Translations under genes and position numbers: made by a program
The notes under the pieces: generated by a model
Told to the model about the DNA's origin: nothing
The model's input: only the letters and a program-made list of their open reading frames with translations
Database searches by the model: none
Source: a virus
Taxonomy: Duplodnaviria; Caudoviricetes
DNA length: 32,117 nucleotides
IMG/VR virus record: IMGVR_UViG_3300014775_000960
Coordinates: 1 to 32,117 of that record
Strand: one strand, 5' to 3'
In this document: piece after piece, positions 4,802-9,687 of the stretch
Position numbering within the stretch: the stretch's first letter is position 1
Layout of the letters: each line of letters opens with the position of its first letter

Positions 4802-4961
4802 GCTGCGAATATGCAGCAGAATCATTTAAAGTGTCAACTACTTTATTACAATTAGGACAAGGAATAATCTCTGCCCAAGTGTAATAAATTTTTCCGTTTG
4901 GATAATGTAAGTGGTGCCAATCTTTTATTTGAGAATGATTGTTGCAATAATCACAATTCAT
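4785..4961 (-). CDS. Small Zn-ribbon protein, 58 aa (not in ORF track)
   Basis: MNCDYCNNHSQIKDWHHLHYPNGKIYYTWAEIIPCPNCNKVVDTLNDSAAYSQHEKLS*; GGAGA upstream. Confidence 0.7.
   Translation of the reverse strand: MNCDYCNNHSQIKDWHHLHYPNGKIYYTWAEIIPCPNCNKVVDTLNDSAAYSQHEKLS
4801..4837 (-). promoter_or_regulatory. Sigma70-like promoter with a palindromic operator over -10/+1
   Basis: TTGACA (4837-4832), 18 bp, CATATT, 6 nt, ATG; TGCTGC-GAATAT-GCAGCA at 4801-4818. Confidence 0.72.
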
Positions 4962-5118
4962 TTTCTATCTCTCCGTGTCCATCACATTCCTCACATGTGA
5001 CTAGTTTTTCATCGAAGAAACCACCATTGACGTAATCTACAACAGGTACATCAATGTAGTATTCACCAATACCTTCACAGTTCTTACAAGTTACTTGATT
5101 AGATTCTGTACTCGACAT
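4951..5118 (-). CDS. DnaJ-type Zn-finger mini-protein, 55 aa (not in ORF track)
   Basis: Two CxxCxGxG repeats: CKNCEGIG and CEECDGHG. Confidence 0.78.
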   Translation of the reverse strand: MSSTESNQVTCKNCEGIGEYYIDVPVVDYVNGGFFDEKLVTCEECDGHGEIENEL

Positions 5119-5366
5119 TCCTTATCTTCTTTCATTTGCAAATACACTTTGTTGATAAACTTTTTTAGCTTTTCAACTTCTTCCATACTGTAAGAATGTA
5201 ATGTACCTTTCTTAAAATCTGGATGATGTATTCTTAGATAAAGTTTTTCAGGATGAGTGTCCGCATATTCAAGAACCATGTAACGTTCTTTTAGTTTATG
5301 TTCATCGTCAAGATAAATTCTATCTATATGCAGTGTTTGAGAAGCAGACATTTTTTTTTCTGTCAT
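5091..5366 (-). CDS. Hypothetical protein
   Basis: Likely start MTEKKM, ATGA-coupled to the DUF932 gene with GAGG SD. Confidence 0.65.
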   Translation of the reverse strand: MTEKKMSASQTLHIDRIYLDDEHKLKERYMVLEYADTHPEKLYLRIHHPDFKKGTLHSYSMEEVEKLKKFINKVYLQMKEDKECRVQNLIK

Positions 5367-6235
5367 AGTATTACCTCTTGTTCTAGTTTTTGCCATGCTG
5401 CTGAGTTTAGTGCATTTTCAACAGCACCCTCACGTTGGAAAGCAGTGATGTGAGGCGATCTACTGTCCTCTGAGGTGTGGGTAGACCAATATGTAAGGCA
5501 GTTGTACAATGCCCACAAATTGGGGCCTAAATGGCGGCTCTCGTTAGAATAAATACCTAACAATTTTTCAAGCTGCTTCTCATTTGTCTTGGTGATGCCG
5601 CGCTGTCTGGTGAAAGCTTTAGCGACTGTAGCTTTGAAGAATGATTCTACATCTTCCTGTTCTACTTTGGTGCGTGTCCAAGTTGCCCATCGATCACGAT
5701 TGCTGATGAATGTTTCCAAACCCAACTTTATTTTGTTGGCACTACCTTCAATATTGATTGATGTAGTATGTTTGTATTTAGAAGTAGCAATAGCTAAACC
5801 AGATACCATACCGTTTTTGCATAGTAGTCTGTAACCTTTACTCTTTTGTAAGAAACTCCAAGACGCATCGTAACTGTTCATGAAGTCAACTCTGAAGTTT
5901 ACAATGTCACCAACTTCTGCTGAATATTTGTTTTCGATATACAAGTCGCGGAAATGTACAGTGCCGCGCATTTTAGCACCGTTGTCATACACTTCTGGTA
6001 TTATCTCATAATCTTTAGATACATCAGATTGAATTACAGCATCTTCGATTGAGTTTACTACATCGTCGTGTAGTACTGGTTTGTATGATCTACCATGTAC
6101 GCCTAGAACTTCATTAGTATCTGTGCGTATGATCTGTTGACTGTTTGGTAATAACTCACCAGTTACAGCGTTGGGCGTTGGAAAAACTTCTATTGGAAAG
6201 TTCCAAGGTTTTTCTTGAGGTAATGCGTCAAACAT
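5363..6235 (-). CDS. DUF932/DUF945-family protein
   Basis: IRTDTNEVLGVHGRSYKPVLH, NSYDAS, RLLCKNG and NLWALYNCLTYWSTH motifs; start moved to MFDALP behind AGGAGAAC. Confidence 0.85.
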   Translation of the reverse strand: MFDALPQEKPWNFPIEVFPTPNAVTGELLPNSQQIIRTDTNEVLGVHGRSYKPVLHDDVVNSIEDAVIQSDVSKDYEIIPEVYDNGAKMRGTVHFRDLYIENKYSAEVGDIVNFRVDFMNSYDASWSFLQKSKGYRLLCKNGMVSGLAIATSKYKHTTSINIEGSANKIKLGLETFISNRDRWATWTRTKVEQEDVESFFKATVAKAFTRQRGITKTNEKQLEKLLGIYSNESRHLGPNLWALYNCLTYWSTHTSEDSRSPHITAFQREGAVENALNSAAWQKLEQEVIL

Positions 6236-6725: not shown

Positions 6726-6772
6726 ACTTCGTTCTCCTTTCAGTTGTACGAATCTCACCGTAGTAGTCCATG

Positions 6773-6984
6773 CTATAGGTGGGGGCGCTCCGCAAGGAGC
6801 GCGAGTTTGGAAGGTTTGGAAACCTTATGAAAGGTTTCCATTGCACGGTGTAAGCCGTGCGGTTTTGGTCAAGCTTTTTTAAAAGCTTGTGGCATGCGCG
6901 GGTGGGCGGGTGGAGCATGCCACGACCCGAGGATGCCTGGCTGCAGCGAAGCGGAAGCCAAGCCCCGCAGGGTCTCCTATAGGT
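6773..6984 (+). other. Structured non-coding element A: six-hairpin multiloop (ncRNA or ssDNA origin signal)
   Basis: Hairpins at 6785-6802, 6817-6840, 6841-6862, 6870-6889, 6889-6923 and 6924-6974, closed by CTATAGG/CCTATAG; GNRA loops and G-T pairs on the + strand. Confidence 0.7.
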
Positions 6985-7210
6985 TGTAATACTTGATGTT
7001 GCCAGATTCGAGAGCATAGTCGTCGATATCTTCAAAGTATGGATCATCCTCGTCGAAAGGGTTGAGTGGATTGAATAAAGGTTCGAGATCTTTTTGAACG
7101 AATAGTAAAGGCTCTCGCTCGTATTGAATGATTGTAGCGTTTTCGTCAGACAAAGGGATCTCAATGCCAATGTCGAGTAACTGACGAATACGAGAAGTAA
7201 CTGTAAGCAT
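6977..7210 (-). CDS. Small, highly acidic hypothetical protein
   Basis: GGAGA/AGGA SD-like sequence upstream; FDEDDPYFEDIDDY segment. Confidence 0.6.
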   Translation of the reverse strand: MLTVTSRIRQLLDIGIEIPLSDENATIIQYEREPLLFVQKDLEPLFNPLNPFDEDDPYFEDIDDYALESGNIKYYNL

Positions 7211-7270: not shown

Positions 7271-7298
7271 AAAAAAAAAGAGCGGCCGAAACCGCTCT
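7271..7298 (-). terminator. Rho-independent terminator of the 7321-7881 gene
   Basis: Minus strand reads AGAGCGGT-TTCG-GCCGCTCT followed by a T run. Confidence 0.85.
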
Positions 7299-7320: not shown

Positions 7321-7881
7321 TTAAACTTGCCTTTTCTGAACTTTTTTTCCTCGGTATTTTTCTCTTATTGCGTCCTGATTAACTTTTAACTGCTCTGCCT
7401 GCTGATCAGCTAGCCGTTGCGCTGCTGAACGGTGGACTTTGTTTGGCGTTGTTTTCTTTTGCAACGGCTCGTATTTCTTACCTACGGTTATAAAGTAAGC
7501 GTGTTTTGAAGACTCCAAATAAAGCTGCAAATCTTCTAGTTCTATTTCGCAATTCTCTTGAAGAAACTGCGCTTTTTCTATGGCTGTCTGAGACATTGCC
7601 ATACCGCGCTGTTGATTCTCTTCAGCTATCTGCACTTCCATTGCGTATTTCGTGATCTGCTTGTTTTTATTCGAGATTAGATATTCAGCCTGCGAGACAA
7701 AACCTCTAGCAACATTTTCTTTCTGCCATTCAGTACCTCCGATTAATTCGATAAGTTCAACAAAACGATCAACTGCATAATTCATGGCATGAGTAACTGC
7801 GGTTGCGTCTGTCATTGCTTCTTGATTTCCATTAGCTTCTTCTAATGCTTTCGTATCTACTTTTGATCTAGCCATTTTCAT
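7321..7881 (-). CDS. Orphan helical/coiled-coil protein with basic C-terminus; first gene of the early arm
   Basis: GGAGA SD (start may be the second Met, MARSK); has its own terminator. Confidence 0.8.
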   Translation of the reverse strand: MKMARSKVDTKALEEANGNQEAMTDATAVTHAMNYAVDRFVELIELIGGTEWQKENVARGFVSQAEYLISNKNKQITKYAMEVQIAEENQQRGMAMSQTAIEKAQFLQENCEIELEDLQLYLESSKHAYFITVGKKYEPLQKKTTPNKVHRSAAQRLADQQAEQLKVNQDAIREKYRGKKVQKRQV

Positions 7882-7919
7882 TCTCCATTTACTTGACTAT
7901 GTTTTAGTTTGTAGTCCCC

Positions 7920-8193
7920 AAATTGAACCGGCCGGAAGAGGACGGCAGGGGCGCACCTTGTCTGACTTTCACCTAAGCAAAATCTGGCTACAACAAGAAT
8001 CAGCCTATCTCTTATTCTTGTTGACGCTATTCCGATTGCCCTGCACTCCCTGCCCCTGCCACTTCGGCAGGTTAACAGGCAGGAGAATAATTGCAGGTTA
8101 ACAGCAATCGGAACACTGGGAATGTGGTTAGCCAGATTTTGCTTAGGTTACAAGTCAGCGCGCCCCTGTCTCCTCTTCCAACGTGTTCAATTT
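7920..8193. ncRNA. Structured non-coding element B: ~275-nt branched rod (candidate large ncRNA)
   Basis: Nested stems 7920-7928/8185-8193, 7934-7942/8171-8179, 7944-7954/8160-8170, 7962-7968/8152-8158, 7971-7990/8129-8148 (perfect 20 bp), 7991-8000/8014-8023, 8030-8039/8104-8113, 8040-8045/8092-8097 and 8055-8060/8066-8071. Confidence 0.65.
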
Positions 8194-8205
8194 AATTAGT
8201 TAGTT

Positions 8206-8317
8206 AATTCGTGAATACGAATTCCGTTAAAAGCGGTTTATGGGACGACCGAAGGGAATCTCGGTCGGGGGATTTACAAGACAAATCCCCAACTACAAAG
8301 CGGTGCGTCTGCACCGC
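8206..8317. other. Train of five hairpins adjoining element B
   Basis: 8206-8223, 8224-8236, 8246-8267, 8268-8290, 8300-8317. Confidence 0.6.
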
Positions 8318-8422
8318 AATAATGGACAAGCGCACAAGGCAAGCTGAAGAAGAAGACTGGTCACTTTATCCATCAACTCCGTTATAGCCCCGATCGAAGA
8401 GCGGGTTAACAGCTCCAAAAGA

Positions 8423-8460
8423 ACGCAACGTAATTGTACTTGTGACGTAACGTAATTGTA
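8423..8460. repeat. Tandem 16-bp direct repeat with 22-bp period
   Basis: ACGCAACGTAATTGTA (8423-8438) and ACGTAACGTAATTGTA (8445-8460). Confidence 0.85.
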
Positions 8461-8512
8461 GACAAAGCGGTGATAAACAGGAAATCGTTGGGGAAAAGAA
8501 AAGGGGGCTAGA

Positions 8513-8896
8513 GTGAATAACAACCTGCCAGTTGCAAGAAAGCTAACACGGAAACAGACAGCGTTGGTGGATACGATAGTAGCAAAAGGCTGCAGTATTA
8601 CACAGGCCGCGCCGCTTGCGGGATATGCAGATGGGGAGTCGGGAAGAGTGAGTGCTAGCAAGGCGTTAAAGCAACCGCATGTGCAGCAATACCTGATGGA
8701 AAGAATGAATGAGGAGTTTGGGCTAAGTGCTACAGTTGCTGCAGGGCAGTTACGAAGGCTAGTGACTAACGCAAAGTCCGAGTATGTCCAGTTGGAAGCG
8801 GCTAAGGATTTGTTAGACCGTGCAGGATATAAGCCGATAGATAGATCGCAAGTGCAAGTGGCTGGAGACATACGAGTCCAGATTGATTTGGCTTGA
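8513..8896 (+). CDS. terS: Terminase small subunit
   Basis: LTRKQ...AGY...KALKQPHVQQY HTH and QLEAAKDLLDRAG; first late gene; GTG start after AGGGGG. Confidence 0.8.
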   Translation: MNNNLPVARKLTRKQTALVDTIVAKGCSITQAAPLAGYADGESGRVSASKALKQPHVQQYLMERMNEEFGLSATVAAGQLRRLVTNAKSEYVQLEAAKDLLDRAGYKPIDRSQVQVAGDIRVQIDLA

Positions 8897-9159: not shown

Positions 9160-9421
9160 AGGCGGTTTGAATGCCGCAGGTCGTGCTTATTTTAAGCGTA
9201 AAGAGGGTTCTAATCTAAAGCCGCCTGTTAAAGATAAGCCAAAGGCGGGTTCGAGGAGAATGGCTCGTAAGGTTTCTTTTGCTGCTAGATTTGCGGGAAT
9301 GAAAGGTCCAATGAAAGATGAGAAGGGTAGGCCAACGCGCAAGGCTTTAGCTTTGAGGGCGTGGGGTTTTAGAAGTGTTGAGTCTGCTAGAAACTTTGCA
9401 AAGAGGCATAAGAAGAAGTAA
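9131..9421 (+). CDS. Small basic phage protein (DUF6321-like)
   Basis: NPKGGLNAAGR...GSNLKPPV...SFAARF...ALRAW pattern recalled from marine phages. Confidence 0.7.
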   Translation: MPAKKYQNPKGGLNAAGRAYFKRKEGSNLKPPVKDKPKAGSRRMARKVSFAARFAGMKGPMKDEKGRPTRKALALRAWGFRSVESARNFAKRHKKK

Positions 9422-9687
9422 TGCCTAGTTCTAAGAATTACATTCGAGATTATTCTTCTAAGGGTGAAGGCAAATATGATAAGTCACCTAAGAGAATGAA
9501 AGACAACCGCGCCAGAAAAAGGGCGCGTTATTTGTTAGAGAAGTCTGGTAAGGCATCGAAGGGCGATGGCAAGGATGTTGACCATAAGAATGGCAATCCA
9601 AGAGACAACAGTAAGAATAATTTGCGTTTAGTTGGAAGGGCGCGTAATAGATCTATTAAGAGAAACAAAAATGCAGGAAAGGCATAA
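9421..9687 (+). CDS. HNH endonuclease-like protein
   Basis: DVDHKNGNPRDNSKNNLR...NR motif. Confidence 0.8.
   Translation: MPSSKNYIRDYSSKGEGKYDKSPKRMKDNRARKRARYLLEKSGKASKGDGKDVDHKNGNPRDNSKNNLRLVGRARNRSIKRNKNAGKA

Follow-up and report, generated by a model that had tools for sequence, protein, structure and literature searches.

A covarying fold-back at the early/late junction of marine podoviruses as a possible single-stranded DNA promoter

Folded single-stranded DNA (ssDNA) that is read by RNA polymerase is known from the minus-strand origins of the ssoA and M13 type and from the hairpin promoters of phage N4, which are short and use a phage enzyme. A promoter-like shape is also found in 6S RNA, a long irregular duplex with a bubble that is readable as an open promoter and with the template on the 5' arm, and this promoter-mimic geometry is common to 6S-type RNA and Frpo. 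On the Frpo and ssi ssDNA promoters, later papers cite Masai and Arai (1997).

In plasmids, ssDNA promoters have been divided into classes 1-3, of which class 1 comprises Frpo1 and Frpo2 of plasmid F and ssi1-3 of ColIb-P9/pESBL, and classes 2 and 3 are found in pESBL; as far as the accessible text of these papers goes, such promoters have so far been shown for host RNA polymerase only in conjugative plasmids, whose DNA enters as one strand (PMC9849209, PMC11541004, PMC12672017).

The window studied here, that is the whole 32,117-base virus record, is complete, carries direct terminal repeats and belongs to a podovirus. Its early arm runs leftward and includes genes for DUF932, HTH proteins, a Holliday-junction nuclease, a YqaJ exonuclease and Erf (PHROGs/Pfam), and its late arm runs rightward, starting with the gene of the terminase small subunit (terS) at 8513. 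A small HNH endonuclease gene, possibly a packaging helper, is located at 9421-9687 between terS and terL. Scans of 49 ORFs against PHROGs and 25 against Pfam, many of them orphans, recognised neither a polymerase, primase or helicase nor a relaxase or rolling-circle initiator. Phages of the HTVC010P type are described as polymerase-less (PMC8477408). Among cultured phages, the nearest relative is the SAR11 phage Hodr (Pelagibacter phage EXVC031P, OQ414635.1; TerL 66%, terS 49%), whose record bears this name, yet has locus tags reading EXVC032PBaldr. No host was assigned to the window, since the three genome matches of the host search, in MAGs labelled archaeon, Opitutae and Rhodobacterales, are probably binned phage contigs.

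Between the two arms lies a fold-back element that is real, conserved and undescribed. In the literature searched, mostly open papers, no report was found on the element, on the genome of Hodr or on ssDNA promoters in tailed phages. Six motifs gave 0 matches in six supplementary files of PMC10690425; files 1, 2 and 4 of that paper, which lay outside this search, may list the element.

The fold-back and its class I homologues

All helices named in the original prediction, which had described a branched rod with an interrupted basal stem, a perfect 20-bp helix, a 10-bp hairpin and a long bulged arm, were recovered in the MFE fold of 7915-8198 (Table 1), the basal stem running from 7920/8193 through 9 bp + 2 bp + 9 + 11 bp and then into a 7-bp helix. 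The mini-hairpin was present as 3 bp and is the weakest part of the element. Fold energies were -148.5 (z -14.3) for RNA of the + strand, -153.7 (z -13.0) for RNA of the - strand and -89.6 (z -14.2) for DNA of the + strand, and in each case 0 of 200 shuffles reached the energy of the element. When the genome was divided into 398 windows of 320 nt and corrected for GC, none folded more strongly than this one (residual z -8.8). The third-strongest fold window is found at 6760-6990, a second GC-rich structured stretch with several short hairpins and no long rod, upstream of the rest of the early arm.

The sole ORF inside the element is an unsupported 47-aa TTG frame, in line with the earlier statement that a credible ORF was lacking. 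Nor does the element belong to a described RNA family: ARAGORN found no tRNA or tmRNA in it, and searches of Rfam gave no family at gathering score and no match overlapping 7920-8193 at E<=10. An assembly fold-back artefact, which had been named as grounds for refutation, was ruled out because diverged full-length copies occur in nine other contigs and a Logan contig spans 7787-8973.

Table 1. Features at and around the early/late junction of the window (positions of the window; strand; basis or remark)
Feature	Position	Strand	Basis or remark
Hairpin of intrinsic-terminator type with T-tail; ends the helical gene, which forms a single-gene unit	7279..7298	-	Computed
First early gene, orphan all-helical coiled-coil protein	7321..7881	-	Likely start 7875; RBS GGAG 7886-7883
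Whole fold-back, ~104 bp	7920..8193	+ (template of leftward early gene)	Fold, covariation, strand bias
Basal stem, 5' arm (partner 8160-8193); taken as the downstream duplex in the model	7920..7954	+	Fold
Unpaired template bulge ACCTT	7955..7959	+	5/5 columns invariant in 10 sequences
5' arm of perfect 20-bp helix, pairs with 8129-8148; -35/-10 spacer in the model	7971..7990	+	Fold
Template of proposed -35, across helix/side-hairpin junction	7988..7993	+	Reads TTGTAG; TTGATC in L014
10-bp side hairpin	7991..8023	+	In individual folds of homologues shown
Apical arm, two nested bulged-helix copies (TTAACA bulges 8072-8077, 8098-8103)	8030..8113	+	Fold
3-bp mini-hairpin	8114..8126	+	Weakly supported, 74% of cells paired
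-10-like hexamer TACAAG in 2x3 bubble	8149..8154	+	TATAAG, TATAAA, TATCAA in homologues; TA invariant
Terminator-like hairpin right of element	8300..8317	-	Also in L011, L014, L102, L104
Separate small hairpin with third TTAACA-bulged helix copy	8384..8413	+	-109/-110 from terS in 5/6 class I loci
Two CGYAACGTAATTGTA repeats and G-rich tract	8424..8507 (8424-8438, 8446-8460; 8490-8507)	+	Family k-mers; outside element
Terminase small subunit, first late gene	8513..8896	+	PHROGs/Pfam

The search for covarying homologues yielded nine further full-length copies, which were aligned with the window copy as class I (10 sequences). In this alignment 24 of the 104 pairs, and 61 cells, were changed on both sides, a level that 0 of 500 shuffles reached, and slid controls gave 2-11 such pairs. 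Template switching between the arms can make double-sided changes without selection; since this is possible and the sequences are related, the changes show that pairing has been kept and leave undecided by what means. Both the fold and its covariation are established, and a branched rod rather than a plain inverted duplication is supported. Double-sided changes were found in 9/20 pairs of helix 2 of the basal stem and in 7/20 pairs of the 20-bp helix, of which 95.5% of cells are paired; the side hairpin reaches only 54% of cells paired because it is misaligned in A3.

The unpaired parts are conserved as well, including the ACCTT bulge, the TA of the 2x3 bubble and five of the six positions of the TTAACA bulge. 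The length of the element ranges from 231 to 286 nt, with the variation located in the apical arm and loops, and the distance from the bulge to the CAA of the junction is 36 nt in all ten copies. A gapped DNA pattern search returned seven matches, namely five known copies and two chance ones in GC-rich phages (L088, L093). By BLASTN the element had no match among cultured phages and plasmids, with none in plasmids at E<=0.01.

The TTAACA-bulged helix is a candidate protein-binding motif. GGTTAAYAG occurs three times in the genome (expected 0.49; 2/100 shuffles reach three), twice in the apical arm and once in the small hairpin, at 8404. The window copy contains an extra nested repeat of the bulged motif, which only 2/10 aligned copies have. 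The small hairpin (8382-8412), which lies outside the element, was tried as Flavo-1 and rejected (19.9 bits against a threshold of 42); the two ends of the Flavo-1 consensus have a likeness in it, but the middle does not. Some motifs recall dif, attC and CtrA sites, but their layout is wrong for such sites, and these identities were rejected.

The hairpin at 8300-8317, on the right of the element, could shield the helical gene from leftward read-through. Palindromic boxes of the form GTGACG-N3-CGTCAC, followed by TTGACA and a purine/G-rich tract, are found family-wide, at 8424-8507 in the window and upstream of terS in most of L015-L086, and G6-type heptamers are present upstream of terS in up to 33 of 38 regions. 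The boxes at 8424-8507 may represent a late promoter or a packaging site or region, and the G tract behind TTGACA could form an R-loop.

Counterparts in relatives, the linked gene and the folding strand

Among 80 terS relatives, most of those with enough flank fold strongly at the same place, and the position of the element, like its fold, is established. These fold-backs fall in several sequence classes that BLAST does not join, and Rfam gave no match in 20 related loci; position, shared short motifs and the shared gene are what suggests homology between the divergent classes. Hodr has a fold-back of ~390 nt at the same place (z -12.7), which is the strongest in its genome, is absent from the annotation of the record and is unrelated in sequence to that of the window. 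The Hodr fold extends over the RBS and some 105 nt into the gene, and in Hodr and several classes taken together 40-145 nt of the first early gene are covered along with the RBS; in class I the RBS lies outside the stem. A further class, reached via a distant protein, contains 150-167 pairs; two distant protein relatives yielded no loci.

The gene directly downstream of the fold-back, in the leftward direction, encodes the helical protein of Table 1. These helical proteins constitute one divergent family of 193 clusters (AlphaFold pLDDT 87.5), for which searches of PHROGs, Pfam, PDB sequences and the ESM Atlas, and with Foldseek and VIA-align, gave no clue to function: the matches were to coiled coils of a generic kind or to phage proteins that are themselves uncharacterised. 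Gre-, Gam- and Psu-like identities found no support. The protein of L044 had no tblastn match in cultured phages, and Hodr gene 022 matches the helical-protein profile at E 4e-7; this profile was built from 29 such proteins, so that many match by construction.

When 44 loci were compared, the 35 with the helical gene folded at -37 to -83 kcal/mol per best 260 nt, and seven of the nine without it at -22 to -29 kcal/mol; the two gene-less loci outside this weak range are L036, which is cut short, and L099, a true exception. The link of fold and gene is established, but the energy split is a good hint and no proof, because the gene-less loci have lower GC and fall in only two clusters and because the two groups are not separated by crude z-scores (with the gene, -0.7 in L019 and -0.4 in L025; without it, -4.8 in L060 and -5.1 in L067). 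A complete gene-less relative has no copy of the helical gene elsewhere (1 of 2 near-complete records matched). The element and the orphan early gene form a module across a large family of marine phages.

Several loci are arranged differently. In L099 the fold (~5100-5450) lies upstream of a gene without a match to the helical-protein profile, and the junctions of L100 (~4850-5400) and L062 contain additional small genes and more than one or two distinct folds each. ArdC is the first early gene in four relatives without fold and helical gene (L035, L039, L060 and L061) and is located further down the early arm in Hodr (L094:4501-5385). Hodr also encodes, at L094:3000-3527, an HTH plus DnaT-domain protein, a candidate replication initiator, of a domain that was not found in the scanned ORFs of the window. 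Contig ends near the element are scattered among the terS relatives, with no sharp terminus seen; L001-L003, L007, L009, L010, L021, L025, L038 and L086 are among those ending ~40-200 nt past the stop of the helical gene, more likely through an assembly break at a variable gene than at a genome end.

The folding strand had originally been called ambiguous, which remains true of the window copy alone, where the - strand folds as well (6 G-U against 1 on the + strand), but not of the family, in which the mismatches favour the + strand. In folds forbidding G-T, the isolated mismatches counted on the + strand of 35 regions were G-T 43, C-T 34, T-T 15, A-A 12, A-G 8, G-G 3, A-C 2 and C-C 0 (n=117), against an expectation of 21 for G-T and 17.5 for A-C and a late-gene control of 7 vs 4, the numbers of independent mismatches being lower than these because related loci share sites. 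A first pass over 38 regions had given G-T 39 vs A-C 3.5, and 12 further loci gave 25 vs 6. Fourfold sites of both arms have relatively more G and T on the + strand, but this skew is modest and by itself could not yield 43 vs 2 mismatches. The + strand bias is established family-wide, and the + strand is the template of the helical gene.

As to the nature of the folded molecule, C-T and T-T are frequent among the mismatches and G-A and G-G scarce, a spectrum that on thermodynamic grounds is at least as compatible with an RNA helix as with DNA. Twenty-three of 60 loops are tetraloops, among which 2 GNRA, 0 UNCG and 4 gCUUGc were counted, and no conserved rightward (+ strand) promoter was found left of the fold in 40 regions. 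Of the large non-coding RNA that had been proposed, the undescribed structured element stands, but the RNA part found no support in transcripts, in stable RNA loops or in a conserved + strand promoter; we infer DNA rather than RNA. Of 12 sequencing runs listed, all as assembled contigs, four were checked for RNA: the sole RNA-recorded run did not cover the element, and a 250-nt contig over the element, from a run that is probably DNA, lies among short pieces of similar depth and is uninformative on transcription.

Proposed promoter geometry and competing explanations

In class I, the 3' side of the bubble holds one of the four -10-like hexamers of Table 1, and the template arm has no consensus there, encoding no -10-like box at the register of 8149..8154. 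Seventeen pairs above the bubble, TTGTAG or TTGATC is read on the template across the junction; the TTG of this proposed -35 is supplied by 8021-8023 in the fold only, and coaxial stacking would be expected because the junction has no unpaired bases. The predicted +1 lies in ACCTT, 73-86 nt before the ATG, and in the window would be T7959, giving a - strand transcript that starts with A. This geometry fits in 7/7 class I copies and then in 3/3 among new loci, and is established as a fixed property of the class. In all ten class II loci a conserved TTGCGA, with spacers of 16-19, puts the predicted +1 38-41 nt ahead of the ATG, and in eight other loci this distance is 62-75 nt.

A structure-aware test (paired TTG, spacing 17/18, YA in a bubble, facing the gene), with criteria set after seeing the data, was passed in the gene-facing direction by 19/32 elements, against 2 and 6/32 in the wrong directions and 11/32 on the mirrored - strand; 5/37 rows had been left out (three without element, one with a short stem, one near-duplicate). 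Applied prospectively to 15 new loci, it was passed by three, all class I, with controls of 3, 7 and 2. Since it detects 1/5 of the F leading-region sites, the test is insensitive, yet gives no support. In the 3' arm of a new class TTGACA or TTGTCA is retained, with no YA at -10; conservation at -7 is weak in Alphaproteobacteria.

The plain promoter score of the 3' arm was 7.15 vs 6.80, 7.11 and 6.93 in controls and hence showed no gain, and it beat shuffles at p<0.05 in 5/32 loci (window, p=0.78; Hodr, which fails the structure-aware geometric test, p 0.045). None of the seven class I intergenic regions contained a strong ordinary leftward promoter, and when class I is read as an ordinary rightward promoter, TTG is missing at -35. 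A TTGACA-17-TATACT promoter facing terS is located inside the 3' arm of Hodr (L094:6830-6860), its spacer being partly looped out in the fold. Architecture and position therefore match the known Frpo device, and box-level promoter evidence is good only within some classes.

The element may be a Frpo-like ssDNA promoter for the first early gene, which we regard as the best of the explanations, a distinct possibility somewhat short of probable; in its manner of working it most likely resembles Frpo, without being a Frpo member by sequence or setting. Once the + strand of the early/late junction is single-stranded, it would fold into the ~104-bp rod, in which the 5' arm would be transcribed and the 3' side would play the part of the non-template strand. 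The stacked junction would create a -35 of the TTG type, and a TA-type -10 would be pre-melted in the bubble 17 bp lower, where host sigma-70 RNA polymerase could bind, start in the ACCTT bulge (about 7959) and run leftward into the helical gene as far as the terminator at 7279-7298. The gene would be on only while the + strand is exposed, because the boxes are out of register in dsDNA. Exposure might be brought about by the YqaJ exonuclease or host nucleases resecting an end after injection, or by displacement during one-way replication. Where the fold of a relative extends over the RBS and first codons, new mRNA could be driven off the template by the duplex, which would permit ribosome loading. 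The absence of a relaxase or rolling-circle initiator among the ORFs scanned counts against the ssDNA-promoter reading. On a wider view, which we hold more tentatively, a widespread family of tailed dsDNA marine podoviruses would pass through a programmed stage with the early/late junction single-stranded on one strand, and a fast-evolving, junction-built hairpin promoter would express a dedicated helical protein only then.

The main rival, transcription of the + strand as a structured RNA controlling the first early gene, whether by binding host polymerase as a 6S-like mimic, by antisense action of the fold-back or in partnership with the helical protein, would need no ssDNA stage and would share the promoter-mimic geometry of 6S-type RNA; mismatches rich in G-T, C-T and T-T, multi-way junctions, protein-site-like bulges and, in many relatives, a 5' arm antisense to the RBS and first 15-50 codons also speak for it. 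We consider it unlikely, since 6S and other Rfam families are unmatched in the window and related loci, the tetraloops and the missing rightward promoter point the other way, the window copy has just 1 G-U in 104 pairs, and the predicted start is aimed at an RBS-bearing gene at a fixed distance, which is needless for a decoy. The folded ssDNA origin named in the original prediction fares better as to ssDNA, though as a promoter tied to the adjacent early gene and not as an origin. At a single-strand origin of the ssi/sso type, a polymerase or primosome would prime - strand synthesis on the displaced + strand, the gene link being secondary; the scanned ORFs, which lack polymerase, primase and helicase, the occurrence of the fold once per genome, with repeats and a G-rich tract directly downstream, a strand skew that fits one-way replication and the priming role reported for Frpo itself (PMC12672017) are all in keeping with this. 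Such an origin is nevertheless quite improbable, as seven relatives (one complete) have no strong fold at the junction, the long downstream duplex would tend to displace the primer, and the scan of 49 (PHROGs) and 25 (Pfam) ORFs gave no rolling-circle initiator.

More improbable still is an ssDNA hairpin that serves packaging, recombination or the protection of an end as the binding site of a protein (terminase, a host factor or the helical protein) and whose promoter-like boxes are due to chance. The TTAACA-bulged helix, which occurs three times, only at this junction, and is duplicated inside the arm, would suit such binding, as would the CTTG-rich loops that recur across classes and the negative promoter-score tests, but the fixed spacing of TTG, TA bubble and bulge and the constant distance to the ATG would be left unexplained, and the contig ends have no sharp terminus at the junction. 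We give least credence to a - strand mRNA leader gating translation, or to back-to-back ordinary promoters kept alike by template switching. In favour are the slightly better fold of the - strand of the window copy, the RBS inside the stem in several classes, a plausible ordinary leftward promoter in L123 and the canonical rightward one in the Hodr 3' arm. Against are the family mismatches, which on the - strand would become A-C 43 and G-U 2, the class I RBS outside the stem, the - strand terminator-like hairpin at 8300-8317 and the lack of a -35 TTG in the ordinary rightward reading of class I.

Comparison with known systems

If the ssDNA-promoter reading is true, a virion-borne dsDNA phage would carry a plasmid-style leading region whose duplex reaches past the RBS and so releases the mRNA. 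These marine viruses would then lay bare and transcribe one strand at a set point, a matter of relevance to the start of infection and to replication in small polymerase-less podoviruses. If the element acts as RNA instead, it would represent a new family of large phage RNAs, conserved in structure and divergent in sequence, that is linked to an orphan protein. Hodr, which shares with the window the gene order, the helical-profile gene and a fold-back at the same place, forms with Pelagibacter HTCC1062 a cultured pair that makes either reading testable now.

Like 6S RNA, the element is a long irregular duplex with a promoter-like bubble and the template on the 5' arm; it differs in having no Rfam match, no large central bubble in class I and no own promoter found, and in a template that continues into a gene. 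With the ssoA/M13 origins and N4 hairpins it would share folded ssDNA that an RNA polymerase reads close to packaging or origin signals, whereas no rolling-circle initiator or virion RNA polymerase was found in the scanned ORFs of the window.

From Frpo and ssi the element differs in sequence, a comparison of 37 elements with the F leading region having given two weak matches, in L084 only. It also differs in its setting, a tailed dsDNA phage without known single-stranded entry, without a relaxase among the scanned ORFs and without a conjugative leading region, in being present as one copy per genome against several, in being branched, with a -35 that depends on the junction, and in the duplex of relatives, which reaches up to about 145 nt into the coding sequence. 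The resemblance lies in architecture and gene company. Folded with the same script on the template strand, Frpo1 and Frpo2 of plasmid F gave irregular rods of 118 pairs with 6-10 G-T, running from +29/+46 to about +365 nt upstream of the ATG, compared with +42/+55 to about +290/+318 in class I. Genes of leading-region type occur in the same early arm, DUF932 in the window and ArdC in Hodr, and DUF932 also lies behind Frpo1 in F. Both systems present, on the template strand, an irregular rod of ~250-330 nt with about 100-120 pairs and a few G-T, whose base is located 30-55 nt upstream of an early gene.
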